Assembly: GCA_021739695.1 (NCBI GenBank)
Contig: JAIPBM010000017.1
Span: 4,354-68,353, forward strand
DNA from: Flavobacteriales bacterium
Lineage (GTDB): Bacteria; Bacteroidota; Bacteroidia; UBA10329
DNA length: 64,000 nucleotides
Reading direction: 5' to 3'
In this document: positions 1-61,891 of the stretch, piece after piece
How the letters are laid out: each line of letters opens with the position of its first letter
Position numbering within the stretch: the stretch's first letter is position 1
Translations under genes and position numbers: made by a program
The notes under the pieces: generated by a model
What the model was told of the DNA's origin: nothing
Databases searched by the model: none
What the model saw: only the letters and a program-made list of their open reading frames with translations

Positions 1-1
1 C

Positions 2-214: not shown

Positions 215-266
215 AATTTTTTGAAATAAATCATCGTAATATTACAATTAACAAGAATAATCTATT

Positions 267-716: not shown

Positions 717-740
717 TATTAAATTGAAAAAGAAACAATC

Positions 741-1460: not shown

Positions 1461-1592
1461 CAAAAACTTGTGTGGCGCATTTCAATAATAGCTCAACGTC
1501 TAGTCTAAAACTGACAATTCAAATTGATGTGCGCGTAACAGGCATGTTAGAAAACGAAGTGAGACTTAGAAGATGAGATTCAGTTTCATTCA

Positions 1593-1610
1593 ATTCGTAT
1601 CTTTACGAAT
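1593..1610. promoter_or_regulatory. Candidate ArsR operator, inverted repeat ATTCGTA-N4-TACGAAT
   Basis: Perfect 7+7 inverted repeat ending 16 nt upstream of the second arsR start. It overlaps a near-consensus -7 box (TATCTTTA). Two related palindromes lie downstream of arsR. Confidence 0.5.
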
Positions 1611-1625
1611 CATATTAAAATCATC

Positions 1626-1925
1626 ATGCCTACATCTAAACAGCAATTTACAGAGAGACAGGAATTGGTTTCCAAGTTTGCCAACGCTTTAGCAAACCCA
1701 GTTAGAGTGGCTATTTTGGAAATGCTTTCGAAGCAAGCCTGCTGTTTTCATGGCGATATGGCAGACGTACTTCCTATTGCTCCAAGCACGCTTTCGCAGC
1801 ATTTAAAGGTTTTGAAAGAAGCAGGATTGATACAAGGAGAGATCAGTCCGCCCAAGACCAAGTACTGCATTAACCGAGAGAATTGGGCGCTTGCCAAAGG
1901 GGTGCTCATTGGATTTCTGGAGTAA
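1626..1925 (+). CDS. arsR: ArsR/SmtB-family transcriptional repressor
   Basis: 99 aa with ALANPVRVAILEML, a CC pair (QACCFHG) and the HTH LSQHLKVLKEAGLI. It is the second ArsR in the island. Confidence 0.85.
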   Translation: MPTSKQQFTERQELVSKFANALANPVRVAILEMLSKQACCFHGDMADVLPIAPSTLSQHLKVLKEAGLIQGEISPPKTKYCINRENWALAKGVLIGFLE

Positions 1926-1936
1926 GAGATCAATCT

Positions 1937-1981
1937 GTTCGTAATATTGCGAACAACCATTCTATTCGTATATTTGCGAAT
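1937..1981 (+). promoter_or_regulatory. Candidate Bacteroidota-type promoter overlapped by two ArsR-type palindromes
   Basis: TTG (1947-1949), N19, then TATATTTG (1969-1976) matches the TTG-N19-TAnnTTTG consensus. The palindromes GTTCGTAATATTGCGAAC (1937-1954) and ATTCGTATATTTGCGAAT (1964-1981) cover the -33 and -7 elements. Confidence 0.55.
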
Positions 1982-2010
1982 GATTCATTATTGAACTAAA
2001 ATCAATTATC

Positions 2011-2250
2011 ATGATCAGCATCAAAGTATTAGGAACTGGTTGCCCGAAGTGTAAAACCACTTACCATAATGTGATGGAGGCTTTAAAGCAAAGCAATCTA
2101 GAGGCTCAGGTAGAAAAGATTGAAGACATTGAAGAGATCTTGAAGTACAACGTAATGACCACTCCTGCCCTGTTGGTCAACGATGTAATTAAAGCAAAAG
2201 GCCGTGTGGCAGATGTTAGCGAAATCATTGCATTCCTGAAAGCTTCGTGA
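2011..2250 (+). CDS. Small thioredoxin-fold protein (redox-active disulfide protein 2-like)
   Basis: 79 aa with a CPKC active-site motif near the N-terminus (LGTGCPKCK). It lies directly upstream of the ars-linked permease. Confidence 0.75.
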   Translation: MISIKVLGTGCPKCKTTYHNVMEALKQSNLEAQVEKIEDIEEILKYNVMTTPALLVNDVIKAKGRVADVSEIIAFLKAS

Positions 2251-2287
2251 ACTTCAGTCAGAGCTGTTCATAACCTGAACTAAAAAC

Positions 2288-3265
2288 ATGTTCGACTGGA
2301 TACAGCACTTCGCAGATTGGCTGATTTACTCAGTCTTCCACATTGGTGCAGAAACCCATCTTGGTGTAGCACTGAACTTCTTTGTGTACGACACACTGAA
2401 AATCCTCATTCTACTTTTTCTCATCGTGTTTCTGATGGGTGTGGTAAACACCTACTTCCCCATTGAGAAACTGAAAGACTACCTCAACCGAAAGAAACTG
2501 TTCGGTCTAGAATACCTGTTCGCTTCCATATTCGGAGCTATTACTCCTTTCTGTTCGTGTTCGTCCGTGCCGCTTTTCATCGGTTTTGTACAAGGCGGCA
2601 TCCCCTTGGGTGTCACCTTCGCTTTCCTTATCACCTCTCCTCTTGTGAATGAAGTGGCCATTGCCATGTTTCTGGGCATGTTTGGCCTGAAAGCAACCTT
2701 GATCTATGCGGGTTCGGGCATTGCTCTTGGCGCCCTAGGCGGATGGATACTCGGGAAATTCAATTTGGAACCCCTACTTACGGATTGGGTCAGGACCATC
2801 ATGGCCAAAAAGCAAACATCCGATCAGCAGTATACCGAAGAGCCGTTGACCTTTATGCAACGGCTACCCGAAATTACCCGTGGCGCTTGGGATATTGTAA
2901 AGAGTGTATTGCTGTATGTGATCATCGGTATTGCCATTGGAGCTGCCATGCATGGTTTTGTTCCCGAACAGTTCTTTGCGGAGTATTTGGGAAGTGGCGC
3001 TTGGTGGACCGTTCCTTTGGCTGTTATTGTGGCTGTGCCCATGTATGCCAATGCAGCGGGAATTGTTCCTGTAATCCAAGTATTTGTAGCTAAAGGAGTG
3101 CCTTTAGGAACGGCCATTGCCTTTATGATGGCTACCGTAGGATTGTCCATTCCGGAAGCAACTTTACTTAAGAAGGTAATGACCATGAAGTTGGTTGCTA
3201 TTTACTTCGGCATTGTCACCTTCTTCATCATTCTGTCGGGCTATTTATTCAATATGATACTATGA
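2288..3265 (+). CDS. UPF0718/DUF318 permease, ArsP-like putative organoarsenical efflux permease
   Basis: 325-aa polytopic membrane protein with the vicinal-Cys motif TPFCSCSSVPLF characteristic of this family. It sits in an ars operon after arsR and the thioredoxin-like gene. Confidence 0.65.
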   Translation: MFDWIQHFADWLIYSVFHIGAETHLGVALNFFVYDTLKILILLFLIVFLMGVVNTYFPIEKLKDYLNRKKLFGLEYLFASIFGAITPFCSCSSVPLFIGFVQGGIPLGVTFAFLITSPLVNEVAIAMFLGMFGLKATLIYAGSGIALGALGGWILGKFNLEPLLTDWVRTIMAKKQTSDQQYTEEPLTFMQRLPEITRGAWDIVKSVLLYVIIGIAIGAAMHGFVPEQFFAEYLGSGAWWTVPLAVIVAVPMYANAAGIVPVIQVFVAKGVPLGTAIAFMMATVGLSIPEATLLKKVMTMKLVAIYFGIVTFFIILSGYLFNMIL

Positions 3266-3397
3266 CATTTGGTTCCAAATTGATTTAGAATGGCAGAATG
3301 AAATGTTCTCCCGAACTTCTGCAAGTTGCAGTTCCCCCTTTCAAAGGGGGTGTCGAGGTACGAGACGGGGGATTTACTTAAAGCATAAAACGCAATC

Positions 3398-3856
3398 ATG
3401 AAAACCAAAACTCAACTCCTCTTAGAACTCTGGCTGGAGGCTCGCACGCGTTTCACCAACCAAATGACCTTGCTTAAAGCTGACGATTTGCAGAAGAAAC
3501 TAGCACCATCACCCAACTCGGTCGGGTTTCTGATTCGGCACATGGGAGATGTGGAATTGCTTTTTGCCAAGAACGTATTTGGCGCTGCTGATGTGAAGGT
3601 TACTGCCAAAACCGTTATTGCCAATCATGATACAGGAGAATGGACAGACCTAGCGGAATTGAAAGCCTACGTTTCCGAGTCGTTTGAGAAACTGAAAGCC
3701 ATTGTGGAAATACAATCAGAAGCAGATTGGGAAACGACCATTACCACCAAGGAATTTGGCACCAGAACAAAGGCCGAAGTATTCGGACGGATTGTTTCGC
3801 ATACAGCCTATCACGCAGGGCAAATGGCCATCATCAATAAATATGGAACACACTAA
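3398..3856 (+). CDS. DinB-family (DinB_2-like) four-helix-bundle protein
   Basis: 152 aa with His-containing motifs (LIRHMGDVE, VSHTAYHAGQ) typical of the DinB metal-binding triad. Confidence 0.6.
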   Translation: MKTKTQLLLELWLEARTRFTNQMTLLKADDLQKKLAPSPNSVGFLIRHMGDVELLFAKNVFGAADVKVTAKTVIANHDTGEWTDLAELKAYVSESFEKLKAIVEIQSEADWETTITTKEFGTRTKAEVFGRIVSHTAYHAGQMAIINKYGTH

Positions 3857-3868
3857 AACTCAATTACA

Positions 3869-4276
3869 ATGAAATCTACAAACGCATTATTCAGCACCCT
3901 TTTCAGCTTCATGCTGATCTTCACTTCATGTACCAGCGAAGCACAACAGACAGCCAATTTGGATGCAACTCCTGTTGCAACTGAGGTCATTCAGTTTCAT
4001 TCGGAACACAGATGCATGACCTGCAATAAGATTGAAACACTCACTAAGGAAACCCTCAAGGCTTATCCTTCTATTCCGTTTTCGTTGGTGAATGTGGATG
4101 ATGAGAAGAACGAAAAGAAGGCGGAGCAATTTCAGGCAACTGGAACAGCCTTATTTCTCTATGACGCCAAAACAGGCAAGATGCAAGAACTCACAGATTT
4201 TGCTTTTATGAATGCTGGAAATGAAGAGAAATTCAAAGCTGAATTGAAGAAGAAAATTGATGCCTTTCTGAAATAG
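3869..4276 (+). CDS. Small secreted CxxC thioredoxin-like lipoprotein (ArsF-family-like)
   Basis: Signal/lipobox (LIFTSC) and a CMTC motif. It is adjacent to a CcdA/DsbD-like membrane protein, the pairing seen in arsEFG-type organoarsenical loci. Family name is from memory. Confidence 0.5.
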   Translation: MKSTNALFSTLFSFMLIFTSCTSEAQQTANLDATPVATEVIQFHSEHRCMTCNKIETLTKETLKAYPSIPFSLVNVDDEKNEKKAEQFQATGTALFLYDAKTGKMQELTDFAFMNAGNEEKFKAELKKKIDAFLK

Positions 4277-4281
4277 ATCAC

Positions 4282-4989
4282 ATGGATTGGCTCAACGAAA
4301 TCGCTCAAAACAGCGAAGCGCCATTATTGGCTGCGTTTGCGCTTGGACTTCTTACAGCCATTTCGCCTTGTCCGTTGGCTACCAACATTACAGCCACCGC
4401 ATACATTGCTAAGACCATTAGCAACAAAAAGAAAGTGCTGCTAAGCGGGTTTCTCTACACTTTGGGGCGGACGTTTTCCTATACCTTCATAGGTGCAATC
4501 ATCTATTTTGGAGCGAGCAAGTTTCAAGTGGCCAAGTTGTTTCAGGGCAATGGCGAGAAATACATTGGCTTTGTGCTCATCTTCATCGGACTGATCATGC
4601 TTGATGTGATCAAATTGAGCTTCATTAAAACAGGCAATTTCACCGAAACCCTTTCCGAAAAGTTCAAAACCAAAGGGCTTTGGGGTTCCTTTCTCTTAGG
4701 TGCTTTATTCGCCTTGGCTTTTTGCCCTTACAGTGGTGCGCTGTTTTTTGCCATGCTTATTCCGCTTACGCTCTCTGCCGATGCTGGATTGGCCTTACCC
4801 GTTCTGTTCTCCATCGGCACGGGTCTGCCCGTCATCCTTTTCGCCTTCGTTATTGCCTTTAGCATGGAGAAACTCGGTTTGTATTTCAAGGCCATTACCA
4901 AGGTTGAAAAAGTAATGCGCGTGGTTGCTGGACTAACGTTTGTCCTTACAGGGTTGTATTACATCAATATTTACTTTCAGCTGGTTTGA
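4282..4989 (+). CDS. CcdA/DsbD-type transmembrane protein (ArsG-family-like transporter or thiol-disulfide transducer)
   Basis: 235 aa, about 6 TM segments, with conserved Cys-Pro motifs in TM1 and TM4 (ISPCPL, AFCPYS) as in cytochrome c biogenesis CcdA-like proteins. Confidence 0.6.
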   Translation: MDWLNEIAQNSEAPLLAAFALGLLTAISPCPLATNITATAYIAKTISNKKKVLLSGFLYTLGRTFSYTFIGAIIYFGASKFQVAKLFQGNGEKYIGFVLIFIGLIMLDVIKLSFIKTGNFTETLSEKFKTKGLWGSFLLGALFALAFCPYSGALFFAMLIPLTLSADAGLALPVLFSIGTGLPVILFAFVIAFSMEKLGLYFKAITKVEKVMRVVAGLTFVLTGLYYINIYFQLV

Positions 4990-5088
4990 ACCCGAACACT
5001 TTGGACATCATATGTTATAGTTGTGTTGACTTGAAAATGAATTTAAATAAACCAGGTCACAACGCCACCAATAAAACGTTGGCTACTT

Positions 5089-5160
5089 CTAAGCCGCCAA
5101 AATCTCGGCCAGTTTCAGGTAGTCAGAATTCACCTTATCGTGATGTTTGATGGCCTCATT
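5089..5160 (-). pseudogene. pfkA: Orphan 3'-terminal fragment of a 6-phosphofructokinase gene (23 codons plus stop)
   Basis: The minus strand reads NEAIKHHDKVNSDYLKLAEILAA-stop, preceded by an in-frame TAG. It is near-identical to the C-terminus of the intact pfkA at 12956-13027 (DKAIKHHDKVNPDYLKLAEILAA-stop). Confidence 0.85.
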
Positions 5161-5240
5161 CTAAGAGACCTGAACGATCTGTTCTTCTACCTATTGATAT
5201 TAAATGAGGCATCTTCCCTATTTTCGTTCATACGTTAAAA

Positions 5241-5825
5241 ATGGATCCCCTTCAACTTATAAGGCAACGATTTCCGTACCTCAGCGATGAAGACCTCATG
5301 TCGGTTGGATCGCTCTTTCAGATGCGTAGGCTCGAACCGGGAGAATCCTTCATCAAAGCTGGCCGTGTAAACTACACAGGTGCCTTGGTAATAGAAGGTT
5401 TACTTCGGAATTACCATCACCTTCCTAATGGTGCTGAAAGAACTGTTCTCTTCACGGCAGAAGGTCAGACCGTAGGTGCCTATTCATCCATTATAAAGCA
5501 CATGCCAGCGGTGGAGCATGTGGTTGCGCTGGAAACGACCATGCTGCTGACGATGGATATGCGCGAATTCAAAAAGATCATGGTTGCAAGCCCTAATCTG
5601 ATGCAGGCATATGCTCAGATACTGGAAACCATGCTGCTTGAAGCCATAGAACGGATCGATCAGTTCGTACTCTTAAGCGCTGAACACCGATACCTTAGAT
5701 TCAAAAAGGATTTTCCGGATTTGGAGCAGCGCATTCCTCAGAAACATCTGGCTTCTTATTTAGGTATTACCGCCATTTCCTTATCACGGATGCGAAACCG
5801 CATGGTAAAGCGGAAGTTAACCTAA
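5241..5825 (+). CDS. Crp/Fnr-family transcriptional regulator (cNMP-binding domain plus C-terminal HTH)
   Basis: 194 aa with a beta-roll cNMP-binding-like N-terminal domain and the HTH HLASYLGITAISLSRMRNR. Confidence 0.8.
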   Translation: MDPLQLIRQRFPYLSDEDLMSVGSLFQMRRLEPGESFIKAGRVNYTGALVIEGLLRNYHHLPNGAERTVLFTAEGQTVGAYSSIIKHMPAVEHVVALETTMLLTMDMREFKKIMVASPNLMQAYAQILETMLLEAIERIDQFVLLSAEHRYLRFKKDFPDLEQRIPQKHLASYLGITAISLSRMRNRMVKRKLT

Positions 5826-5830
5826 GTTAA
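5817..5830. promoter_or_regulatory. Candidate Crp/Fnr-type box TTAAC-CTAA-GTTAA
   Basis: 5-4-5 inverted repeat overlapping the crp stop codon and upstream of the cyclase gene. The 15-nt string TTAACCTAAGTTAAT recurs exactly at 9401-9415. Confidence 0.45.
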
Positions 5831-5919
5831 TAGACCCACTTCAGGATTTCCTGCAATTTGGCCATGGAGGATGAATGGTCAGCAACAAGGTAGTTGCAAC
5901 TTACCCATCCTCAATACTA

Positions 5920-7815
5920 ATGAAACGCACCATCCTCTACTTAGCATCCTTCCTGTGGTTGCATGTGCAGGCTTCTTCTCCTGTAGACAGCCTCTATTCT
6001 GAACTCAAAGATGCACACATCGACACGATTCAACTGCAATTGTTGAATAGACTTTGCGCGATGGAACGAGACCGAGGCAATTTCGACCTTTCAGACAGTC
6101 TGGCAAGCGAGGCGCTTCAGCGGGCCGTGGCCATTCATTCGTTAAAATGGGAAGCTGAAGCCCGTATCAATCAAGGTAATACCACACAGAAAAGAGGCAA
6201 TTTTCATGCAGTCTTGCGTAGCAGAGACGAACTCAGGCAACTGGTGACACGCGCAAACGACCACCGACTTTGGGGCAATTACCACACACTGATGGCCAAT
6301 TGCCATCGCAAAATGGGCGATCTGCCCACAGCCATGGACGCCTATTTGAAAGCACTTTCCTTCTTCGAACAGATAAACGATCTGAAAGGGATGGCCTCGA
6401 CCTACAACAATATGGCCATTGTGCAAGCAGCTCAGAACCGTTTCGATCTGGCGCTAAATTACTTTGTCCGATACGCAGAAATGAACCGTATGCGCGGGGA
6501 TGCAGCAGGAATGGCCATGGGACATCGCAATCAGGCCACATGCCTTATCGAAATGGGAAAATTGGCCGAGGCCCGTGTCTTGGCCGACAGCGCGCTGACC
6601 GAGTTCCGAAACCTGGAAAACAGAGCTCAGGAAGCAGCGCTTTTGAGCACCATTGCCATCATCAATTTCAAATTGGGAAAGATCCAAGAGGCCTCAGAAT
6701 ACTTTGAAGCAGCAATGAAACTGACCGATGAGCTAGGAATGACCATGGCGCATGTCAGCAATCAGATATCGCTTGGTGGCGTTCGCATAGAACAGCAAAG
6801 GTTTACTGAGGCCAAACAGTTGATCGAACAGGGAGTATCAACCGCTTTGAAGCTCGGACACAAGGAACACATACGAGATGGTTACCATCAAATGTCCATT
6901 CTCGATAGCGCCATGAACAATATGGCTGCTGCGTTGGAGCACTACAAACTCTTTGTGCTTTATAAAGACAGCATTTTCAATGAGACGTCATCCGAGCAAC
7001 TTGCCGAAATGGAGACACGATTTGAAACCGAACGGAAAGAACAGCAGATAGTACTGTTGAACAAGGATAAGGAGATCAAGGACAAGGAGATTTCGGAACA
7101 GAAGGTTTTGAGGAATGCCGCGTTGCTAGGCTTTTTCATCATGCTGTTATCTGCCAGTGTTTTTCTTTTACAGCGAAACCGGATAAAGAAGGAGAAGGAA
7201 CATAGTGAGGAGTTGTTACTGAACATACTTCCATACGAAACTGCGCAAGAATTGAAAAGCAAAGGAAGTGCCGATGCAAAGATGATTGATATGGCCACCG
7301 TGCTTTTTACTGATTTCAAAGGATTTACGGCCTTAAGTGAGCAACTGACCCCGCAGCAACTGGTGGCCGAGATAAACGAGTGCTTCTCAGAATTCGACCG
7401 CATCTGCGAACGGCACAACATAGAGAAGATAAAGACCATTGGCGATGCTTACATGGCAGCCGGAGGTCTTCCCACCGCCAATTCGACCCACGCCATTGAT
7501 GTGGTACAGGCTGCCATTGAGATTCGCGATTTCATGGCCAAAAGAAACCGAACAGGCAATAGCAGGTTTGAAATACGGATAGGTGTGCATACAGGGCCAG
7601 TTGTGGCGGGCATTGTAGGTATCAAGAAGTTCCAATATGACATTTGGGGCGACACGGTGAACATTGCAAGCAGAATGGAAAGCTCGGGCGAAGTCGGAAA
7701 GATCAACATATCGGAGTTTACCTATGGGCTGGTAAAAGATGCCTTCATGTGCGAATACCGCGGTGAGGTGGAAGCCAAAGGAAAAGGAATGATGAGAATG
7801 TATTTTGTGCAATGA
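5920..7815 (+). CDS. TPR-repeat, membrane-anchored class III adenylate/guanylate cyclase
   Basis: Signal-like N-terminus, multiple TPR-like repeats, a coiled coil, one TM (AALLGFFIMLLSASVFLL), and a C-terminal cyclase domain (VLFTDFKGFT, KTIGDAYMAAGG, DIWGDTVNIASRME). The longest ORF begins at 5875; Met at 5920 is preferred. Confidence 0.85.
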   Translation: MKRTILYLASFLWLHVQASSPVDSLYSELKDAHIDTIQLQLLNRLCAMERDRGNFDLSDSLASEALQRAVAIHSLKWEAEARINQGNTTQKRGNFHAVLRSRDELRQLVTRANDHRLWGNYHTLMANCHRKMGDLPTAMDAYLKALSFFEQINDLKGMASTYNNMAIVQAAQNRFDLALNYFVRYAEMNRMRGDAAGMAMGHRNQATCLIEMGKLAEARVLADSALTEFRNLENRAQEAALLSTIAIINFKLGKIQEASEYFEAAMKLTDELGMTMAHVSNQISLGGVRIEQQRFTEAKQLIEQGVSTALKLGHKEHIRDGYHQMSILDSAMNNMAAALEHYKLFVLYKDSIFNETSSEQLAEMETRFETERKEQQIVLLNKDKEIKDKEISEQKVLRNAALLGFFIMLLSASVFLLQRNRIKKEKEHSEELLLNILPYETAQELKSKGSADAKMIDMATVLFTDFKGFTALSEQLTPQQLVAEINECFSEFDRICERHNIEKIKTIGDAYMAAGGLPTANSTHAIDVVQAAIEIRDFMAKRNRTGNSRFEIRIGVHTGPVVAGIVGIKKFQYDIWGDTVNIASRMESSGEVGKINISEFTYGLVKDAFMCEYRGEVEAKGKGMMRMYFVQ

Positions 7816-9377
7816 ACGGACAGTATGATACAGAAGTTGTCATAGTAGGTGGCGGCCCTACGGGTCTGATGTTGGCAAACCTGCTAGGCGCATGCGGAGT
7901 GAAAACCATTGTGCTGGAGCGCGAGAAAGATGTGTTTCCAGTACCTCGGGCCACGCACATCGATGAAGAAACCGTCCGAAATTTCACACTTACCGGCCTG
8001 ATGCCCGAATTGGCAAAACACATCTCGCCATTCGGCAATGTGGAAGTTGCTGACAGCAAAGGCCGTGTCATACTGACGGAACATGTCGGTCTGATCTCTG
8101 ATGTACATGGAAAAGCGGGATCATTCTTCTTTGATCAACCAGCCTTTGAAACCATCTTACGGCACGGGTTGAAACGATATGCGCATGTGTTATTCTTGCC
8201 TGATACAGAAGTTCTTAAGATTGACCAACATGCCAACGGAGTCACTGTTTTTGCCAAAGACCGTGAATGCGAAAATGAACGGACCGTGCACGCACAGTAT
8301 GCCGTTGGGTGTGACGGTGGGCGTAGTCTGGTTCGGAAAAGCTTGGACATTTCAATGCATCAGATGGCGCCAAGCAGAGATTGGCTTATTGTTGATGCTA
8401 CGCTGAAGGATATGAACGATGCGGCACTGTTGCCTCAGCATTTTCAGTACCGCATGGGCTTAGACCGATTGATGCTATATGCGCACGGCCATGGACAGAA
8501 CAGGCGCTGGGAATTCCGTTTGCAACAAGGAGAGGAACATCCAGACCGGTCCGAAGTGATCAAATGGATATCGGCCTTTATCGAACCTGAAAAACTGAAC
8601 ATACTGAGAATGACCCCATACACGCAAAGGGCACAGATAGCCGAAAAGTGGCGGGTCGGGCGGATACTGCTGGCGGGCGATGCTGCACATCTGATGCCTC
8701 CATCTGCTGGGCAAGGCATGTGCTCAGGCATACGCGATGCCGTCAATCTTGCATGGAAACTACGCCATGTACTACAGTTTTCAGATAGAGACGGAATGCT
8801 CAATTCGTATCAGACCGAACGGCAGCCGCATCTTACCAAGATGCTGAACAGTTCCATGTTCATCAGCAATCGACTTAATGCCGAATCGGCCGTGGCGCGC
8901 CTGTGGAAATATGCGCAGATCCTTTTCATCGGCACGTTTTCTCCGATACGCGACCTCATGCGTTCCCAACTTCTTTCTCCGATCCCATTGAGCGCAGGCT
9001 TTTTTCAGCATTCATTGGCTGGTGGACAACATGTGCCCCGCTTCGAAGATCAGGATGGTCAGTTTACAGATGTATGGCCTTACGCGTGGGCCGTGGTAGG
9101 TGCGGCCGATGCATTCGGACCCTCGCTCATGCTCCGATTAGGCATGATGGGCATCCATTCCGTTGGCAACCGGTTGGAAGACGCTATGCTCGAAAGCAGA
9201 CTGAATCGGTGGTTGAAAGACAATGATGCGACATTTGCCATTATTCGGCCAGACCGTATCGTGTATTGTTTTACAGGCAAACATGCCATTCATGCACAAC
9301 TGGACGTGCTGGAAAGGCGAGGTGTCGGGTATGTAGAGCTGGCAAATGCGCTAGAGCTGCGCCACGGAGCTGCCTGA
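7812..9377 (+). CDS. FAD-dependent aromatic-ring monooxygenase (MhpA/PheA-TfdB-like)
   Basis: GxGxxG (VIVGGGPTGLMLA), then CDGGRSLVR, then GDAAHLMPPSAGQGMCSGIRDAVNLAWK. Its start overlaps the cyclase stop (ATGA). Confidence 0.8.
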   Translation: MNGQYDTEVVIVGGGPTGLMLANLLGACGVKTIVLEREKDVFPVPRATHIDEETVRNFTLTGLMPELAKHISPFGNVEVADSKGRVILTEHVGLISDVHGKAGSFFFDQPAFETILRHGLKRYAHVLFLPDTEVLKIDQHANGVTVFAKDRECENERTVHAQYAVGCDGGRSLVRKSLDISMHQMAPSRDWLIVDATLKDMNDAALLPQHFQYRMGLDRLMLYAHGHGQNRRWEFRLQQGEEHPDRSEVIKWISAFIEPEKLNILRMTPYTQRAQIAEKWRVGRILLAGDAAHLMPPSAGQGMCSGIRDAVNLAWKLRHVLQFSDRDGMLNSYQTERQPHLTKMLNSSMFISNRLNAESAVARLWKYAQILFIGTFSPIRDLMRSQLLSPIPLSAGFFQHSLAGGQHVPRFEDQDGQFTDVWPYAWAVVGAADAFGPSLMLRLGMMGIHSVGNRLEDAMLESRLNRWLKDNDATFAIIRPDRIVYCFTGKHAIHAQLDVLERRGVGYVELANALELRHGAA

Positions 9378-9400
9378 ATTTGCGGGCAAGGTTTTCGAAA

Positions 9401-9445
9401 TTAACCTAAGTTAATGCAGGTGCTGCGTGGTTCAGAATAGGTTTG
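9401..9445 (+). promoter_or_regulatory. Second copy of the TTAAC-N4-GTTAA box (9401-9414) followed by a -7 box TAGGTTTG (9438-9445)
   Basis: Exact repeat of the 15-mer at 5817-5831. The box centre lies about 31-38 nt upstream of a consensus TAnnTTTG -7 element, 22 nt before the start of the giant repeat-protein gene. Confidence 0.45.
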
Positions 9446-9466
9446 AAGAGATAAACTGAACCTATC

Positions 9467-12400
9467 ATGCAAACACCATCCAAGCTCCGATCTTCAGTGA
9501 TCATCCTCTTCTTTTTTACAGGCCTAAAGGCATTTTCGCAAAGTAATGGCGTAGGAATAGACATTCCCAATCCACAACAGAAACTCGATGTGGCCGGTGG
9601 AATCCGTATCGGGAACACTACCACAGGATTAGCTGGCTCCATCCGCTGGACAGGTGCCGCGTTTGAAGGTCATGATGGAACCAACTGGATTCCATTTGGA
9701 GGCTCCTTTATGGGGTATTGGTCTGCAAACGGACCCGACATATCCAACAGCAACACAGGCAATGTTGGAATTGGCAATTCCCTTCCTCAGGAAAAACTGC
9801 ACATAACGGGAAAGATCCGAGTGGTAGATGGTACGCAGGGAGCAGGAAAGGTGCTGATGAGCGATGCCAACGGTACTACATCATGGACCCATGCACCGAG
9901 CATCAATCTGCTTCGCGATGCCGACAACGACACCAAGATTCAGGTAGAGGAAAGTGCTGATGAGGACCTCATCCGATTTGACGCGGCCGGAAGTGAGATG
10001 TACACCATGCGCAAGTTGGCCGGAGGTTCACCTTGGCTGGAAGTAAACTCAACCAACACCCTTATTGGAAAAAGCATCAGCTCGGCCATCAATGGTTCAG
10101 GAAGGTGGAACACGGCCGTTGGTTTTCAATCAGCTCAAAACCTGACCACTGGGCAGAAGAACACGTATCTGGGAGACAACACAGGCGGATCCAATACAAC
10201 AGGCGATTGGAACACAATGCTCGGGACCGTGGCAGGCCAGTTCAATAACGGAGGCAGCATGAATACGATGGTGGGTGGAAATGCGGGCAGAAGCAATCTA
10301 ACAGGTTCAGGAAATGTGTTCATCGGATTCGCAGCCGGTGAGAATGAAACGGGCAGCAGCAAGCTTTACATCCACAATTCATCTACCGCAAACCCACTCA
10401 TTTATGGCGACTTCTCCAGCGGTCTGCTCCGTATCAACGGCACACTCAACGTCAATAATTCCTACAACCTGCCAACTGGAGCCGGTACCAATGGGTTTGT
10501 GCTGCAGACCAATGGATCAGGAACAGCATCGTGGGTAAATCCGAATACCTTGGCAATTACCGAGACCGACCCACAGGTAAGCGCTTCCACAACCAACGTT
10601 ATTCCGAAATGGAATGGTACTGCTTTGGTGGATGGTGTGATCAGTGATATTGGCACCACTGTCAACATTGCTTCCCGCATTGTCAACGTTGGCGATAACA
10701 CGTCCACGGCTGCCACATTCTTGAATCTGGTCAGGTCCGGATCATCAGGTCGGATATATCTGGGTAGTGGGGCCACCTCTCCCAATATGGTCATTCAGGC
10801 TCAAACCGCCAGTGGCGATATTGTGCTTGAAACGGTTTCAGGCGAATCTATGCGTGTTGCGGATGGTGGCAATGTGGGCATCGGGAATGCACTGCCGCAG
10901 GAAAAACTACATATTACCGGAAAGATCAGAATGGCAGACGGAACGCAGGGAACGGGAAAAGTGTTGGTGAGCGATGCCAATGGTTCGGCCTCGTGGACAG
11001 ATGCCGCCTCGCTTACCATTACCGAGACCGACCCACAGGTGAGTTCTTCCACAATCAACATCATTCCGAAATGGAACGGCACCACGCTGCAAGATGGCGC
11101 ACTTTATGACAACGGTAACATCGGCATCGGAAATGCGCTGCCGCAAGAAAAACTACATGTTACAGGAAAGATCAGAATGGTTGATGGAACACAAGGAACG
11201 GGAAAAGTGCTGGTGAGCGATGCCAACGGTTCGGCAGCTTGGGCCGATGCCACCACACTTACCATTGCCGAGACCGACCCACAGGTGAGTTCTTCCACAA
11301 TCAACATCATTCCGAAATGGAACGGCACTACGCTGGAAGATGGCGCACTTTACGACAATGGCAACATCGGCATCGGAAATGCGCTGCCGCAGGAAAAACT
11401 ACATGTTACCGGAAAGATCAGAATCGTTGATGGAACACAGGGAATGGGAAAAGTGCTGGTGAGCGATGCCAACGGTTCGGCAGCTTGGTCCAACGCACCA
11501 AGTGTCAATCTGATCCAAGATGCAGATGAAGACACCAAGGTTCAGCTGGAAGAAAGTGCCGATGAGGACATCATCCGTTTTGACCTTGCCGGAACAGAGT
11601 ATCTTGTGCTTGACAATGGCAGAATGAATATAAAAAACACCGGTGGTGGCACTTTTTTGGGCAATGAAGCAGGCCAAAATGATGACCTGAACGGAAGGTT
11701 CAATTCGTTTGTCGGTTATTTTTCAGGCAGAGCAACAACTTCTGGTGGTGACAATGCTGCTTTTGGGGCTGGTTCTATGGAAACAAACACAACCGGCAAC
11801 GGTAATACAGCCCTCGGTCGCTCTACCCTTTTTAGAAACGTTACAGGATCAGACAACGTGGCAATTGGTACATATGCCTTATATCAAAACCTTAATGGAT
11901 CCCGAAATGTGGCGATAGGCAGTGGAGCGGGAGCAAATGCCACAGGAATTGCCAACGTCTTCATAGGTAACGATGCGGGAGCCAACGAAACTGCCAATGA
12001 CCGTCTTTACATCGATAATTCGAATACAATGAATCCGCTTATCTACGGTAACTTCCTAAGTCGCGAAGCAGCTATCAATGGCAATCTGGGCATTGGAACA
12101 CAAAGCCCCACACAGAAACTGGATGTGTTAGGCAATGTTCATGTCAACTCAAACATCCTCATGTTCACAGATCCTCAGAATAGCAACAGCACCATTTACC
12201 TAACGGCCAACGATGCTGCTTACCCGAATGAAGGTCTCAGTGTGCGCACACTCAGCAGTCCTGCCAATGGCAAGCCGCTGTTCCGTGTGCTTTCTTCTGG
12301 TGGGGCAGAAAGATTGCGGGTGGAGCACAACGGAAGGGTTTACATGGATAACAAGCTTGATGTGGTCGGGCAACTTACTTTCCGCAATGGATCACCCGCT

Positions 12401-12853
12401 GCCGGAAAAACACTTGTTTCCACTGATGCGACCGGTAACGCCACATGGAGTCAGGGCACAGAGAATGTTGCCTACACGAAGAGCACAGGGGTTTATTCGC
12501 ACGACAATACAAACGGTTACGCTGCAATCACCGGAACGGCCTCACTCAGCGTTTTTTCGGGAGATGTCATTACCATCATGGCCAATGGTTCATTCCGTTT
12601 GGATGGTGGTTCGGGGGTAGATGACTTTTTCTTTCGCGTCAGCTATACTGGCTGCGCAACGGGCAATGCCAACGAGACGAACTATTTTCCAAGCGAAGAC
12701 GCTAATGACCACGACAATTATGTGCCGGTCTCCTATATAGACGTAATGGTGGCGCCTTGCACAGGTACGCTAGATTTCGAATTCAACGCCCGAAACGTGG
12801 GAGATGACCCTTGGACTGCGGAGGACAGGGTGCTAGTGGTGCGTAGGAATTGA
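9467..12853 (+). CDS. Large secreted repeat protein, adhesin-like or fibre-like
   Basis: 1128 aa with a signal peptide (VIILFFFTGLKAFSQ). It has 82-aa tandem repeats (GN.GIGNALPQEKLH.TGKIR..DGTQG.GKVL.SDANGSA.W...TETDPQVSS..INIIPKWNG). Two blocks of short NT/GxN repeats resemble trimeric-autotransporter head motifs. No T9SS C-terminal domain was recognised. Confidence 0.7.
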   Translation: MQTPSKLRSSVIILFFFTGLKAFSQSNGVGIDIPNPQQKLDVAGGIRIGNTTTGLAGSIRWTGAAFEGHDGTNWIPFGGSFMGYWSANGPDISNSNTGNVGIGNSLPQEKLHITGKIRVVDGTQGAGKVLMSDANGTTSWTHAPSINLLRDADNDTKIQVEESADEDLIRFDAAGSEMYTMRKLAGGSPWLEVNSTNTLIGKSISSAINGSGRWNTAVGFQSAQNLTTGQKNTYLGDNTGGSNTTGDWNTMLGTVAGQFNNGGSMNTMVGGNAGRSNLTGSGNVFIGFAAGENETGSSKLYIHNSSTANPLIYGDFSSGLLRINGTLNVNNSYNLPTGAGTNGFVLQTNGSGTASWVNPNTLAITETDPQVSASTTNVIPKWNGTALVDGVISDIGTTVNIASRIVNVGDNTSTAATFLNLVRSGSSGRIYLGSGATSPNMVIQAQTASGDIVLETVSGESMRVADGGNVGIGNALPQEKLHITGKIRMADGTQGTGKVLVSDANGSASWTDAASLTITETDPQVSSSTINIIPKWNGTTLQDGALYDNGNIGIGNALPQEKLHVTGKIRMVDGTQGTGKVLVSDANGSAAWADATTLTIAETDPQVSSSTINIIPKWNGTTLEDGALYDNGNIGIGNALPQEKLHVTGKIRIVDGTQGMGKVLVSDANGSAAWSNAPSVNLIQDADEDTKVQLEESADEDIIRFDLAGTEYLVLDNGRMNIKNTGGGTFLGNEAGQNDDLNGRFNSFVGYFSGRATTSGGDNAAFGAGSMETNTTGNGNTALGRSTLFRNVTGSDNVAIGTYALYQNLNGSRNVAIGSGAGANATGIANVFIGNDAGANETANDRLYIDNSNTMNPLIYGNFLSREAAINGNLGIGTQSPTQKLDVLGNVHVNSNILMFTDPQNSNSTIYLTANDAAYPNEGLSVRTLSSPANGKPLFRVLSSGGAERLRVEHNGRVYMDNKLDVVGQLTFRNGSPAAGKTLVSTDATGNATWSQGTENVAYTKSTGVYSHDNTNGYAAITGTASLSVFSGDVITIMANGSFRLDGGSGVDDFFFRVSYTGCATGNANETNYFPSEDANDHDNYVPVSYIDVMVAPCTGTLDFEFNARNVGDDPWTAEDRVLVVRRN
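10868..11490 (+). repeat. Tandem 246-bp intragenic repeats (2 full copies plus about half a copy)
   Basis: Repeat units start at 10868, 11114 and 11360, an exact 246-nt period. A more diverged unit starts at 9758. The copies are highly similar at the DNA level by eye. Confidence 0.85.
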
Positions 12854-12955
12854 TGTTTCTTTCTACGGAATAATACCAGATTCTGATTCAGCGATCAGGA
12901 TATTCGTCTTGCATCATCAGATTCCCAATCTTTCAAATCAGGTTGGTCTTTGGCA

Positions 12956-13927
12956 TCAGGCCGCCAATATCTCGGCCAATTTCAGGTAGTCAGGATTCAC
13001 CTTATCGTGATGTTTGATCGCCTTATCGAATGATGTGTAGCACACTTTCTTGTCTACAATACCCACCATGACAGAATGTTTCCCTGCAAGCAGTGCATTC
13101 ACCGCTTCGTAGCCTAGTTGCGAAGCCAGCATGCGGTCCAATGCCGAAGGACTTCCACCCCGTTGCTGATGGCCCAGAATGGTAACACGCGTATCGTATT
13201 GCGGAAGCTGCTTCACTACCTGTTCGGCAATATTGTAGGCACCACCTGCATCATCTCCCTCGGCCACAATAATAATGCTGCTCGATTTCTTGCGGATATA
13301 AGCAGCCCGCAAGTTTGCCACCAGTTCTTCAAGGTCGGTATGAACCTCAGGAATGAGAATGGCGGTCGCTCCTACTCCAATGCCCGAACGGAGCGCAATG
13401 AAACCTGCATCCTTGCCCATCACTTCTACAAAGAACAATCGGTCGTGCGATGCGGCCGTGTCCTTGATTTTATCCACCGCATCCAGTACGTTATTTAGCG
13501 CTGTATCATAACCAATGGTATAATCGGTGCCAATAAGGTCGTTGTCGATGGTGCCAGGCAAGCCAATGAACGGAATATTGTGCTCCTCCGTAAAGACCTT
13601 GGCGCCTGCAAACGTGCCATCGCCACCAATGGCCACAATGCCTTCTATGCCATATTTCTGAAGATTATCGAAAGCCTGCTGGCGTCCTTCCTTGGTCAAA
13701 AAGGCCTTGCAGCGCGAAGATTTGAGGATGGTTCCGCCACGCTGAAGGATGTTTCCCACATCATCGCTGTCCAGCAATTTGAATTGGTCGTCTATCATGC
13801 CTTGGTATCCGTGCATGATGCCATAGATGGTCATTCCGTGATGTAATCCTGTTCTGACCACCGCGCGGATGCACGCGTTCATTCCCGGAGAATCTCCTCC
13901 GCTGGTAAATACTGCAATCGTCTTCAT
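12956..13927 (-). CDS. pfkA: ATP-dependent 6-phosphofructokinase
   Basis: 323 aa with IAVFTSGGDSPGMNA, GGDGT, PGTIDND and GHQQRGG motifs. Confidence 0.95.
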   Translation of the reverse strand: MKTIAVFTSGGDSPGMNACIRAVVRTGLHHGMTIYGIMHGYQGMIDDQFKLLDSDDVGNILQRGGTILKSSRCKAFLTKEGRQQAFDNLQKYGIEGIVAIGGDGTFAGAKVFTEEHNIPFIGLPGTIDNDLIGTDYTIGYDTALNNVLDAVDKIKDTAASHDRLFFVEVMGKDAGFIALRSGIGVGATAILIPEVHTDLEELVANLRAAYIRKKSSSIIIVAEGDDAGGAYNIAEQVVKQLPQYDTRVTILGHQQRGGSPSALDRMLASQLGYEAVNALLAGKHSVMVGIVDKKVCYTSFDKAIKHHDKVNPDYLKLAEILAA

Positions 13928-13936
13928 GCAGTGAAA

Positions 13937-14314
13937 TTACAATTCAATGATCTCGAAAGGAATCTTTACAACCTCCTTGAAGGATAAACCATCAGCCACG
14001 TTATCTTCATCTTCTGCTTCGCATATCCAGCGTACGCGGAATTCGTTACCTGTGTCATTCAGCTCATGAAGCAGATTGAAAAGCCCCATCAAGCGAATAA
14101 ATGAACCTGTGTTGTAGTAATCGAGGGCAATGTCAATGTTTGCCCTTACAAATTGGAACCGAAGATTATCATTGAGCCAATTGGTAACAGGATTGTAGAA
14201 TTTCTCGGTATTCTCTGGCATGGATCTTCCGCGGATGGAAAACCGAAGTGCTTCAATATCGAAATCAATTTCAGGAGAAACTGAGGTGGCTTCTATGTAA
14301 AGTTTCTTATCCAT
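13937..14314 (-). CDS. DUF1987/SiaC-like small protein
   Basis: MDKKLYIEATSVSPEIDFDIEALRFSIRGRSMPENTEKFYNPVTNWL resembles the DUF1987 family. Start chosen at Met 14314; the longest ORF reaches 14350. Confidence 0.55.
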   Translation of the reverse strand: MDKKLYIEATSVSPEIDFDIEALRFSIRGRSMPENTEKFYNPVTNWLNDNLRFQFVRANIDIALDYYNTGSFIRLMGLFNLLHELNDTGNEFRVRWICEAEDEDNVADGLSFKEVVKIPFEIIEL

Positions 14315-14375
14315 TTGCTCGATTGTACAAAAATAAACCGAAGATGTCACAAAGAGTTCGCAAACAATAAAAATC

Positions 14376-15704
14376 TTAGGTTTTCAAACGTGGATCCAGC
14401 GCATCGCGAATACCCTCACCTAAAAGGTTATAGACCGTTACCGTTAGGAAGATGGCGCAACCTGGGAAGATGACCAACCACCAAGCTTGGAATGCCTCAC
14501 GACCAGAACTGAGCAATGAACCCCAAGTAACCACATCGGCAGGCACTCCGATACCGAGGAACGAAAGACCCGATTCGATAAGAATGGCAGATGCTATACC
14601 GAAGGCCACCTGAACAAAGGCTGGTGCTACTCCGTTTGGCAAGGCGTGCCGAAAGATGACGCGTGCCTCGCTAAAGCCCAATGACTGACCTGCAGCGATG
14701 TACTCCAAGTTCTTGATCTTGAGGAATTCTGCCCGCGTGATGCGTGCAATTCCGGTCCAGCTGGTCAATCCGATAATGAGCATAAGGTTCACAAGGCTCG
14801 GTTTGGCAACCGCAGCAATGGAAATGATCAGGATCAACCTTGGGATGGAGATCAATATTTCAATCACCCTCAAAATGATGGAATCAGCAGGGATATTGGT
14901 CTGCGTGTTCAGTATCGGCAGTTTTCCTAGAACCTTTCCGATATAATAGAAAGCAGCTGTAATACCAACAAAAATGGCTAAGCTGAGTACCAATTGAAGC
15001 AAAATGGCTCCGCCAGAGGTTCCAATAGCATCAGCAAGAATATCCGCACGGATCATGAATGCGTAATAATAGGCCAGTACCAAACCTAGAATGAAGGTCC
15101 AAAATTGACCTCTGGAAGTTCTCAGTTTCGCATCTCCGAAATACCCGGCAAATGAACCCAAAACCAATCCGATCAAGGTGGCTATTCCCATGGAAAGAAT
15201 GCCGATCGTCAACGAAATACGCGTAGCATGAATAAGTCCTGAAAGCACGTCTTCGCCTTTCTTATTCGTTCCTAGTAGATGGCGGAAACGTCCTGGCATA
15301 TCTACTAATGCACCTGTTTTATCCTTAAAGAACTGCTTTCCAGATGGCGCCTTATAATCGGAATTCAGAAAGTCTGACTTACTCGGAGCGTAAGGTATCG
15401 GTGCCCAAATAACAGACTCGAGGTCCATCTGCTTCCACTTGGCAATATCCAACTGAACGTTTTCAACAGAACCATCTGCTTTCTTTATCTCGTAGGTATT
15501 CTGAGTAGAGAATGCCGGAAAAAGCGACTCGCCATGATACTTGGCATAAAGCGGCTGATCGTTGGAGATGACAGGTGCCAAAAGCGCAATCACCGCCAAT
15601 GTTCCTAAGATCCAAAGCGAATAATAAGCTGGTTTGTTCTTCTTGAACTGAGACCAAGCATATTGCCTGAAACTGAATTGTGTATTGTCCTTCGAACTGC
15701 TCAT
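14376..15704 (-). CDS. ABC transporter permease, OppC/DppC-type
   Basis: 442-aa polytopic protein with an EAA-loop-like motif (AAGQSLGFSEARVIFRHALPN). Its start abuts the stop of the upstream permease gene with no gap (15704/15705). Confidence 0.8.
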   Translation of the reverse strand: MSSSKDNTQFSFRQYAWSQFKKNKPAYYSLWILGTLAVIALLAPVISNDQPLYAKYHGESLFPAFSTQNTYEIKKADGSVENVQLDIAKWKQMDLESVIWAPIPYAPSKSDFLNSDYKAPSGKQFFKDKTGALVDMPGRFRHLLGTNKKGEDVLSGLIHATRISLTIGILSMGIATLIGLVLGSFAGYFGDAKLRTSRGQFWTFILGLVLAYYYAFMIRADILADAIGTSGGAILLQLVLSLAIFVGITAAFYYIGKVLGKLPILNTQTNIPADSIILRVIEILISIPRLILIISIAAVAKPSLVNLMLIIGLTSWTGIARITRAEFLKIKNLEYIAAGQSLGFSEARVIFRHALPNGVAPAFVQVAFGIASAILIESGLSFLGIGVPADVVTWGSLLSSGREAFQAWWLVIFPGCAIFLTVTVYNLLGEGIRDALDPRLKT

Positions 15705-17198
15705 CTATTTTGAAAAACTAATACGTGGGTCAGCAACTGCATAAAGAATGTCGGAAACCAAATAACCGACAAGCGTCAAGACGCCCGTAATGGTAAAAAT
15801 GGCAATCAACATCGGGTAATTCTGATTCACAATGGCATTGTAAGATTCGCCTCCCATACCAGGAATGGTAAAGATCACCTCCAAGATGACCGAACCACCA
15901 ATTGCTACCGGGAAAATATTGGCAAACACCGTGATGATCGGCAATAGACCATTTCGCAAAGCATGCTTGTAAATCACAACTCGTTCTGTCAATCCTTTGG
16001 CACGGGCCGTTCTGATGTAATCCTGATTGACAATTTCAAGCATCGAAACGCGCATTAGACGCGATAGGAATGCAAACGAACTGTAGGTGTAGGATATGAT
16101 CGGCAAAACGAGAAATGGTAATCGATCTGCCCACTTTTCAAAGAATCCAGCATCTTGGGCAAACCCACGAACAGGTTCTACGCCTGACGCTGGGAACCAA
16201 TGGAATACATCTGGATTGGCAAACCACATCAACAATACCGTAGCTGCAAAGAAATTAGGCAGCGAATAAAGGATAAATAGAAGAACCGTGGTTACACGGT
16301 CGAAAGTGCTGTCTTTGTGTACTGCGGCCTGAACTCCAAGAGGAATACTTACCACATAAGCGAGAAACACAGAGATCATACTGAAGAAGAATGACCAAAA
16401 GATCTTGATGCCGATCACTTCTTGAATAGGCATTTTGGTCGTGTAAGAAGTTCCAAAATCTCCACGGATAATTCCTCTTGTGAATTCGGCTCCTTTTCCT
16501 GTCAACCAATTTCCATCACCGAAAATCCAACGGTGATATTGGTTTTTAGAATAGAAGTTCAGAACCGGAACGTATTTCTTCCAAGGTGTCGCAGTTTCCT
16601 GCACGGCTTCAAACTTGGCTCTCGCAATATCAAACTCATCTTTCAACGGAGCCATGTAAGGTTTAGCGTACAGCTCTTCCAATCGTTCGAACTTGGATTC
16701 GATAACCACCAAACTATAAGATGCTTTGAGACTAGAAGACTCGAAAAAGCTCGTATTCACATCTTCTTTGAATTGGCCAAGATCAAAGCCAAAGGCTGTT
16801 GAACTATCGATCTTCAATTTGGAATGAGCATTATGTAATGCTGAAATTGCCGAAAAATAATCGCTGATGGCTGGCCAGTTTCCGTATTGGTTGGTCAATC
16901 GAGAAAGCGATTCCTGTTCATTATTGTCGTAGATGCGATACAGCGTATCGCTCTGCGCCAACGAATTCAAACTGACATAGAAAATGGGCAGGTCCAAGCC
17001 GAGTTTTCTACTCCAGAATTTCTTTTGTTCTAACTGATTGGAGGTCTGAGAACCGATCTCACCACCAGCTTGGGCAGCAACCACCATCCGTTCCACAGGA
17101 TCACCAGGGGCAGAAACCATGATCACAAAACCCAAAAGGGTGATGGCGATCAGCGTTGGAATAAAGACGAGAACTCTACGAAAGACGTATTTAAGCAT
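15705..17198 (-). CDS. ABC transporter permease, OppB/DppB-type, with a large extracytoplasmic insertion
   Basis: 497 aa. The N-terminal TM is followed by a soluble insert of roughly 200 aa before the conserved permease core (RTARAKGLTERVVIYKHALRN). Confidence 0.8.
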   Translation of the reverse strand: MLKYVFRRVLVFIPTLIAITLLGFVIMVSAPGDPVERMVVAAQAGGEIGSQTSNQLEQKKFWSRKLGLDLPIFYVSLNSLAQSDTLYRIYDNNEQESLSRLTNQYGNWPAISDYFSAISALHNAHSKLKIDSSTAFGFDLGQFKEDVNTSFFESSSLKASYSLVVIESKFERLEELYAKPYMAPLKDEFDIARAKFEAVQETATPWKKYVPVLNFYSKNQYHRWIFGDGNWLTGKGAEFTRGIIRGDFGTSYTTKMPIQEVIGIKIFWSFFFSMISVFLAYVVSIPLGVQAAVHKDSTFDRVTTVLLFILYSLPNFFAATVLLMWFANPDVFHWFPASGVEPVRGFAQDAGFFEKWADRLPFLVLPIISYTYSSFAFLSRLMRVSMLEIVNQDYIRTARAKGLTERVVIYKHALRNGLLPIITVFANIFPVAIGGSVILEVIFTIPGMGGESYNAIVNQNYPMLIAIFTITGVLTLVGYLVSDILYAVADPRISFSK

Positions 17199-17216
17199 GA
17201 AGCTACTGGAATGACC

Positions 17217-50997: not shown

Positions 50998-51001
50998 TTT
51001 A

Positions 51002-51084: not shown

Positions 51085-51156
51085 ATTTCATGTCAAGACA
51101 ACATCTTGAAATCATTCAATATCGACCTTCAACATCATAAGCAATACCTTTAGGCC

Positions 51157-52899: not shown

Positions 52900-52923
52900 C
52901 AACGGTTAAATTTGCCGTCAAGC

Positions 52924-54428: not shown

Positions 54429-54448
54429 CGGTTTGCCGTGACAAACCA

Positions 54449-61890: not shown

Positions 61891-61891
61891 A

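Follow-up and report, generated by a model that had tools for sequence, protein, structure and literature searches.

In the icd gene of Escherichia coli, the element e14 and phage 21 leave a characteristic layout, in which a complete gene with a substituted, mostly synonymous 3′ end is followed by the insert and then by the orphaned tail (icdC), all in direct orientation (PMC13626634). Here, we describe the same layout at pfkA, the gene for ATP-dependent 6-phosphofructokinase, in a 64,000-nucleotide (nt) stretch of DNA from an uncultured lineage of Flavobacteriales (assembly GCA_021739695.1, contig JAIPBM010000017.1, positions 4,354 to 68,353; hereafter, "the window"). An orphaned copy of the pfkA 3′ end is separated from the intact gene by a cargo of four genes. 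The replacement tail of icd keeps the enzyme functional, and so does that of pfkA. Unlike e14, a prophage that encodes an integrase and is excised upon SOS induction, the 7.8-kb insert at pfkA has no recombinase. It also has no phage genes, save one for a fiber-like surface protein with a signal peptide, and no detectable phage relatives.

A comparable arrangement is known from rhs loci, from contact-dependent inhibition (CDI) loci and from the effector-immunity loci of type VI secretion systems (T6SS). In these loci, an incoming conserved upstream part brings a new 3′ end and new genes, and the old 3′ end is orphaned downstream, as observed at pfkA; no dedicated recombinase takes part, which is also the situation at pfkA (PMC5361080). 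However, those loci encode polymorphic toxins whose displaced tips encode alternative toxins and immunity proteins and form arrays, whereas the pfkA locus shows a single displacement. Moreover, pfkA encodes a housekeeping glycolytic enzyme, its two tails specify nearly the same peptide, and its payload is an unrelated regulon. With integrase-borne islands at the 3′ ends of tRNA and other genes, the pfkA locus has in common the shared direct repeats, the regeneration of the target, the empty site and the deviant composition, but it has no integrase or mobility genes, and its repeat does not recur in other genomes. We class the structure with a known type of scar, 3′-end displacement at a conserved gene, of which it is a new case.

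Results

A diverged copy of the pfkA 3′ end brackets a four-gene cargo. The original prediction, made by eye from the sequence, was that a diverged direct repeat of the pfkA 3′ end, in the same orientation as the gene, flanks an insertion. A self-BLAST search of the whole window recovers this repeat (E = 8e−21) as a pair of 67-nt copies at positions 5093-5159 and 12960-13026, of which 62 nt (93%) are identical; over the slightly longer intervals initially proposed (5089-5160 and 12956-13027), identity is 63 of 72 nt. Besides this pair, the only dispersed direct repeats in the window are those internal to the fiber gene and a 43-nt pair near 58 kb. Translated on the minus strand, the orphan reads VS*NEAIKHHDKVNSDYLKLAEILAA* and consists of the final 23 codons of pfkA plus a stop codon, with an in-frame TAG directly upstream, as had been predicted. 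The intact gene ends in DKAIKHHDKVNPDYLKLAEILAA*. Homology has abrupt edges on both sides, and a few bases suffice for identity to fall from 93% to background levels. The sequences 3′ of the two stop codons are not similar to each other (p = 0.40), and positions 5161-5240, into which the remnants of a decayed second pfk paralog might have extended, show no similarity to pfkA (shuffle p = 0.85 to 0.99), on which basis we rejected such a paralog.

The two tails differ in 7 of their 23 codons and in their stop codons (TAG in the orphan and TGA in the intact gene). Four of the differences are synonymous (GCG/GCC, TTG/CTG, ATA/ATT and GCC/GCT) and three are not (D/N, K/E and P/S); the earlier statement that most differences are synonymous is therefore barely true. 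All three replacements fall at positions that vary among the 120 functional homologs listed. Both copies carry the signature DYLKL, which, elsewhere among the 120 listed homologs, occurs solely in the pfkA product of a related locus, L001 (protein P0001). Homologs of the window's pfkA form more than 70 protein clusters at ≥77% identity, and an exact-product look-up of the gene returned no record.

The predicted empty site is present in a metagenomic contig. A search with the ArsG-like protein encoded next to the orphan identified a 1,284-bp contig (L088) from a different sequencing run, SRR21700158, in which the homolog is 94% identical. This contig is the predicted empty site. It is collinear with window positions 3899-5156 at 87.6% nt identity, through ArsF, ArsG, a spacer of about 100 nt and the pfkA tail, and its pfkA frame runs on past the orphan boundary to the contig end, reading CYTPFEQAIKHH... 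and ending in ...CYTPFEQAIKHHDNVNPDYLKLAEILAA-stop. The part of pfkA visible in L088 is 84 nt long and extends about 20 nt past the orphan boundary. We also noted a match of about 18 nt between the sequence downstream of the orphan and that of L001; it is not significant (p = 0.38), and we relied on L088 instead.

The left junction of the cargo is real. An independent Logan assembly of run SRR12088350 contains three contigs that are 100% identical to the window. One of them (L095, window positions 3349-11051) reproduces the junction from ArsG through the orphan to the Crp-like gene base for base, another (L096) covers positions 13604-17328 and ends inside pfkA, and the third (L097) covers positions 1-3362 and extends 823 nt beyond the left end of the window. 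L096 breaks about 320 nt into pfkA without an obvious sequence cause; the break could reflect strain heterogeneity that begins inside pfkA.

At its left end, L097 can be aligned with L001 at 76.8% nt identity. The stretch of L001 that matches belongs to a convergent gene of 206 amino acids (aa; FN3-like by eye), of which it is the 3′ end, located 1.4 kb downstream of the L001 pfkA, and the two are collinear, so that synteny with the region downstream of pfkA in L001 resumes about 620 nt before the first position of the window. The window and L001 share both flanks, and between them lie about 13.8 kb that are absent from L001, the ars island followed by the cargo. Because the ars island adjoins pfkA also in L088, while the cargo does so in the window alone, the gene order points to nested insertions, with the ars island arriving first and the cargo later. 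The ancestral state implied by the original prediction, in which the ars island directly adjoins pfkA, is thus borne out by L088 and needs one refinement, namely that the ars island is itself an earlier insertion in the same slot.

The two tails carry alleles of different lineages. To polarize the differences, we used L001, L088 and L089 as outgroups. Three synonymous sites and the stop codon set R1 (the copy in the intact gene) apart from R2 (the orphan copy) and all three outgroups, while R2 is unique at two or three sites. The orphan shares the TAG stop, C8, C48 and T59 with L001 and L088, and its GCT codon with L088. A duplication in situ predicts faster change in the neutral copy, and the opposite is seen; therefore, R1 and R2 are best read as alleles of two lineages about 7% apart. 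A binomial estimate against duplication in situ gives p of about 0.01 to 0.06. Together with the placement of the amino acid changes at variable positions, this pattern supports the earlier view of the orphan as the end of a once-functional, diverged allele rather than a fresh duplication. Polarizing R1 and R2 by their distance to L001 or L089 was also tried and had no power, as both copies are equidistant.

The allele pattern requires any crossover to lie at or upstream of position ~7 in the repeat. A crossover confined to the first ~7 nt is unlikely for a RecA-mediated Campbell event on 67 bp of homology, and the pattern would fit either a site-specific recombinase acting at the edge of the block or a linear event with its crossover further upstream in pfkA. 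The original prediction had proposed Campbell-type or site-specific integration of a circular element. While the insertion scar is supported by these data, the circular vehicle is not established.

Alleles of pfkA have also been exchanged elsewhere in this group. The L001 counterpart (L001 positions 10001-10972) of the window's pfkA (12956-13927) groups with the window at 85.8% nt identity and is 78.4% identical to that of L003. For the flanking opp genes (window positions 14376-19115), in contrast, L001 groups with L003 (85.2%), with 78.4% identity to the window. These conflicting groupings indicate that the pfkA allele was replaced by homologous recombination in the L001 lineage. A scan of JGI metagenomes for pfkA ends encoding DYLKLAEILAA found just L089, an L001-like locus.

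The cargo is foreign to its surroundings. Its GC content is 0.49, versus 0.43 for positions 1-5088 and 0.44 for the rest, and its tetranucleotide distance is 0.24 to 0.25, versus 0.11 to 0.20 elsewhere; both values are the highest of any 7.8-kb stretch in the window. Among 5.8 billion database proteins, the best foreign homolog of its cyclase reaches 59% identity. In none of about 20 related loci do the four cargo genes adjoin pfkA, and no relative was found to carry them there without an orphan. The cargo is foreign and coherent. We rejected the idea, suggested by its GC content, that pfkA itself was imported, since pfkA is richer in GC than its neighbors in all relatives.

No machinery of a mobile element was detected. 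Searches of the four cargo proteins with hidden Markov models of Pfam, NCBIfam and PHROGs gave no recombinase domain, and a Pfam search of all other open reading frames called in the window gave no integrase, transposase or other recombinase, in agreement with the original reading. The ends of the cargo have no terminal inverted repeats (p = 0.82) and no terminal direct repeats beyond the pfkA tail. The locus does not resemble a transposon insertion: transposase and inverted repeats are lacking, and the repeat consists of 67 nt of diverged alleles instead of a short target-site duplication. On known plasmids and phages, the cargo and the left flank have only short matches at the level of gene families. 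Neither pfkA nor its tail has a real match among the viral contigs of IMG/VR; one candidate (L090) proved to be a chance similarity to AIKHHDKVN in an unrelated high-GC phage. Rfam models detected three tRNAs only in positions 1-22000. Scans for sigma-70 promoters and terminators at both junctions returned nothing, with consensus patterns that are ill-suited to Bacteroidota.

The slot downstream of pfkA turns over rapidly. The window was assigned to its lineage by pfkA and the neighboring genes. The block consisting of an SBP_bac_5 gene, two permease genes, SiaC and pfkA is syntenic in about 20 related loci. In more distant relatives, as well as in L091 and L092 to L094, pfkA is followed by priA, which is the ancestral neighbor. 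What follows pfkA differs among the window and L088, L001, L089, L002, L003 and L013. In the lineage of protein P0009, a gene encoding a 75-aa DUF433 protein lies between pfkA and priA (L092 positions 7064-7291, with equivalents in L093 and L094). A second or orphaned pfkA tail was found in none of about 90 related loci.

The ars cassette has a close counterpart in an unrelated context. It is 93.2% identical at the nt level to positions 4653-8115 of L087 (97% over ArsF-ArsG), where it lies between a PvuII-type restriction-modification system and a methyltransferase gene. Its ends in L087 are sharp, and one coincides with the ArsG stop codon, so that the native spacer between ArsG and the orphan is missing there. 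No recombinase is encoded near the L087 cassette. ArsG is 85 to 90% identical at the aa level across several families of Bacteroidota. We regard the ars cassette as an older occupant of the same slot and, judging by these matches, as a transferable module itself.

The cargo is predicted to form one regulon. The domain searches agree with the initial description of the cargo as a Crp-family regulator, a cyclase with tetratricopeptide repeats (TPR), a monooxygenase dependent on flavin adenine dinucleotide (FAD) and a 1,128-aa repeat protein (Table 1). The start of the monooxygenase gene overlaps the stop of the cyclase gene, and in L086 a monooxygenase homolog follows the cyclase. In L082, L083 and L086, the pair of Crp-like and cyclase genes (in L086 together with the monooxygenase) occupies ordinary chromosomal locations that contain neither mobility genes nor fragments of pfkA. 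The fiber-like protein has no Pfam match. It weakly matches the Bdellovibrio fiber protein Bd2133 (PDB 8OND, E = 3e−5), and it matches tail-spike and virion structural families of PHROGs at E values of 4e−20 to 6e−4. The tandem repeats of its gene (positions 9753-11605) are up to 91% identical to one another, and L095 breaks within them (11051).

A palindrome of the form TTAAC-N4-GTTAA occurs exactly twice in the window (0.03 copies expected), both times within the cargo, and it is conserved, in the position that it has ahead of the window's cyclase gene, upstream of the cyclase homologs in L082 (4827-4840), L083 (9938-9951) and L084 (1702-1715). It probably serves the adjacent Crp-like regulator as an operator. 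Because this conserved palindrome is found in the window solely inside the cargo, and twice, the cargo looks like a self-contained cyclic-nucleotide regulon with two copies of one putative operator. The four genes fill the island, leaving spacers of just 80 nt and 102 nt at its ends; the intergenic DNA of the latter (12854-12955) came in together with the cargo.

Table 1. Features of the pfkA locus in the window (positions counted from the first nucleotide of the window)
Feature	Positions	Strand	Remarks
ars cassette, ArsR-thioredoxin-ArsP-DinB-ArsF-ArsG	1523..4990	+	Pfam, NCBIfam
Native spacer, orphan to convergent ArsG	4990..5088	.	86% identical to the ArsG-pfkA spacer in L088
Orphan pfkA 3′ end, R2 (core 5093-5159), 23 codons and TAG	5089..5160	-	Native-type allele
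Cargo-side flank upstream of the Crp-like gene	5161..5240	.	Nonhomologous junction at ~5157-5160
Crp/Fnr-type cNMP-binding regulator, 194 aa	5241..5825	+	Pfam cNMP_binding, E = 9e−9; paired with cyclase in L082, L083 and L086
Palindrome TTAACCTAAGTTAA, putative operator, end of the Crp-like gene	5817..5830	+	45 nt upstream of the cyclase gene
TPR and class III adenylate/guanylate cyclase	5875..7815	+	Pfam Guanylate_cyc, E = 1e−59; TPR_12
FAD-dependent aromatic-ring monooxygenase (MhpA-like)	7812..9377	+	Pfam FAD_binding_3, E = 5e−65; NCBIfam PRK06183 subfamily, E = 7e−118
Second copy of palindrome TTAACCTAAGTTAA	9401..9414	+	53 nt upstream of the fiber gene
Secreted fiber-like repeat protein, 1,128 aa	9467..12853	+	Signal-peptide-like N terminus; tandem 246-nt (82-aa) repeats
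Intergenic DNA, pfkA stop to convergent fiber-gene stop	12854..12955	.	Unrelated to the native spacer and to the region downstream of L001 pfkA
Intact pfkA, ATP-dependent 6-phosphofructokinase, 323 aa	12956..13927	-	Pfam PFK, E = 4e−109; 97% aa identity to P0001 (L001)
Repeat copy R1, last 67 nt of intact pfkA	12960..13026	-	Atypical allele G8, T48, A59, then TGA stop

Other regions of the window. The block of PhoH, SAICAR synthase, DciA and MORN genes at window positions 60583-63854 (minus strand), about 41 kb away and beyond the opp operon, lies about 1.5 kb downstream of pfkA in L003 (8083-11554) and adjoins the Crp-cyclase pair in L083 (12401-15948). The PhoH block, pfkA and the Crp-cyclase pair are thus neighbors in differing combinations across genomes. 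A second SBP_bac_5 gene (19707-21566), divergent and located between the tRNA cluster and a 92-aa gene, encodes a protein 58% identical to that of the opp-linked copy (17217-19115); L001 has no counterpart at that position. The paralogy of the two genes is reflected in a 117-nt inverted repeat (18816-18932 and 19863-19979). Finally, positions 49627-55504 resemble a small biosynthetic cluster, with genes for an amine-oxidase-like flavoprotein, a halogenase-like FAD protein, an acyl-carrier protein, a 417-aa protein without a Pfam match and a sulfotransferase.

Discussion

The layout at pfkA supports the interpretation of an insertion scar, as opposed to a decayed paralog or a fresh duplication. 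To explain it, we tentatively favor homology-anchored recombination in pfkA combined with an illegitimate distal join, an account to which we give somewhat less than an even chance. In such an event, the 3′ end of the resident pfkA would have been displaced by DNA of a related strain whose pfkA was directly followed by the four-gene module. The conserved pfkA, and possibly the upstream opp genes, would have served as the homologous anchor; with a crossover at or upstream of the repeat, the present pfkA would owe its last 67 nt, its TGA stop and the DNA that follows to the donor. At its other end, which lies about 80 nt ahead of the Crp-like gene, the incoming DNA would then have been joined without homology to the recipient, at a point 67 to 70 nt before the resident stop codon, and the resident tail, the spacer of about 100 nt and the neighboring ars island would have been shifted 7.87 kb away. 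This one-ended homologous event corresponds to homology-facilitated illegitimate recombination, or "C-terminal displacement," and a comparable origin has been put forward for the orphaned 3′ regions found at T6SS and rhs loci (PMC5361080). The anchor is available, as conservation of pfkA and the opp operon extends to all relatives, and the orphan abuts the flank of the cargo in the same orientation. The distal junction (~5157-5160) has no extended homology, and any microhomology there would span at most about 3 nt. Moreover, the exchange of pfkA alleles and the rapid turnover of the slot give more weight to a linear, homology-anchored event. We infer from these observations that the cargo was the incoming side, that the mechanism was linear and one-ended, and that a donor arrangement exists.

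Several observations weigh against this account. Homology-facilitated illegitimate events usually delete recipient DNA and do not produce a 67-nt duplication. The homology of R1 ends exactly at the stop codon, which a replacement tail carried by an element predicts more naturally than a donor chromosome does. The donor arrangement, in which pfkA with its TGA stop is followed by the fiber gene and there is no orphan, was found in none of the GTDB genomes, JGI metagenomes or protein-context look-ups, in which this sublineage is very sparsely represented. The crossover point in pfkA is not placed, given the 84 nt visible in L088 and no cargo-free reference from the same lineage. In addition, the right junction, from the fiber gene to pfkA, lacks independent assembly cover, as L096 stops at 13604. 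The polarity rests on composition and rarity, and a mirror-image event, with the ars side incoming, yields the same structure. Finally, measurements of homology-facilitated illegitimate recombination, where available, show it to be rare (PMC5361080).

The main competing account is that a small circular islet integrated site-specifically, with an attachment (att) site mimicking the last ~67 nt of pfkA and an integrase that acted in trans or was later lost; the islet would have provided the new tail and pushed the native one aside. Direct repeats that bracket the island exactly, a regenerated target gene, an empty site (L088) and a cargo of deviant composition are all in line with such integration, as is the equivalent layout of e14, icd and icdC (PMC13626634). 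R1, whose homology ends at the stop and which is wholly atypical from position 8 onward, would point to a fixed crossover at its 5′ edge. However, no integrase, excisionase or other recombinase is encoded in the islet or among the called open reading frames of the window, and the four genes with their 80- and 102-nt end spacers leave no room for the remnant of a pseudogene. Homologs of the Crp-cyclase pair, with or without the monooxygenase gene, live in ordinary chromosomal surroundings, and the orphan tail is absent from other genomes (about 90 related loci) and from viral contigs, bar the one chance match. We therefore regard the islet as a serious but unlikely alternative. It is more doubtful still, and offered here as speculation, that the pfkA 3′ end is a dedicated att site for a whole family of tiny, integrase-less islets that are mobilized in trans in uncultured Flavobacteriales. 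If that were true, the cyclic-nucleotide regulon would be a plug-in unit, and the differences among sister lineages in what follows pfkA would come from the site having been used repeatedly. We consider it improbable that the polarity was reversed, with pfkA and the cargo resident and an L088-like fragment (the truncated pfkA tail, spacer and ars island) incoming, anchored on its left by homology and illegitimately joined ahead of the Crp-like gene. The final structure is symmetrical and can arise in either direction, the ars cassette is demonstrably transferable (93 to 97% nt identity to L087 and 85 to 90% aa identity of ArsG across families), and, when compared with L002 and L003, the window's pfkA agrees phylogenetically with the genes that flank it, so that no import of the intact gene is required. 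Yet the compositional outlier is the cargo and not the ars side (GC content of 0.49 versus 0.43 for positions 1-5088), the cargo has no close homologs in the clade, and the orphan allele is the one typical of the sublineage. Furthermore, the adjacency of pfkA, spacer and ArsG is known in L088, whereas that of pfkA and the cargo is documented nowhere else.

A local origin, either from a decayed second pfk paralog or from a ~70-nt target duplication that diverged in situ, is very unlikely. The DYLKL signature in both copies would place them in the same narrow sublineage, but no pfkA remnant extends beyond the 67 nt (p = 0.85 to 0.99), and R1, which is under selection, has accumulated more lineage-specific changes than the neutral R2, including a two-step change of the stop codon; there is also neither a transposase nor terminal inverted repeats. 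Least credible is a chimera of two strains produced by metagenome assembly. The contig is indeed derived from a metagenome, and Logan contigs from the same run break in pfkA (13604) and in the fiber repeats (11051). The left junction, however, lies in unique sequence and was reproduced base for base in L095 by an independent assembler, and joining at the repeat would not yield a truncated tail that abuts non-pfkA sequence. Even jointly, local duplication and assembly artifact carry little weight.

The favored displacement does not overturn the current understanding of how such loci evolve; its general interest is modest, and the scar, although clean and sharply bounded, is a fairly ordinary product of horizontal transfer. 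Scars of this kind can form without a visible recombinase, which is relevant to island-finding software that relies on integrases. The combination of an empty site and real, if thinly sampled, relatives allows a stepwise reconstruction of the event in an uncultured lineage. The payload is of interest on its own, as a compact cyclic-nucleotide module in which a regulator, a cyclase and a fiber protein would share one putative, conserved palindromic operator. For the host, a housekeeping gene such as pfkA may serve as a landing pad that is left undamaged, because the incoming DNA supplies its own tail and the old tail persists as a datable scar.

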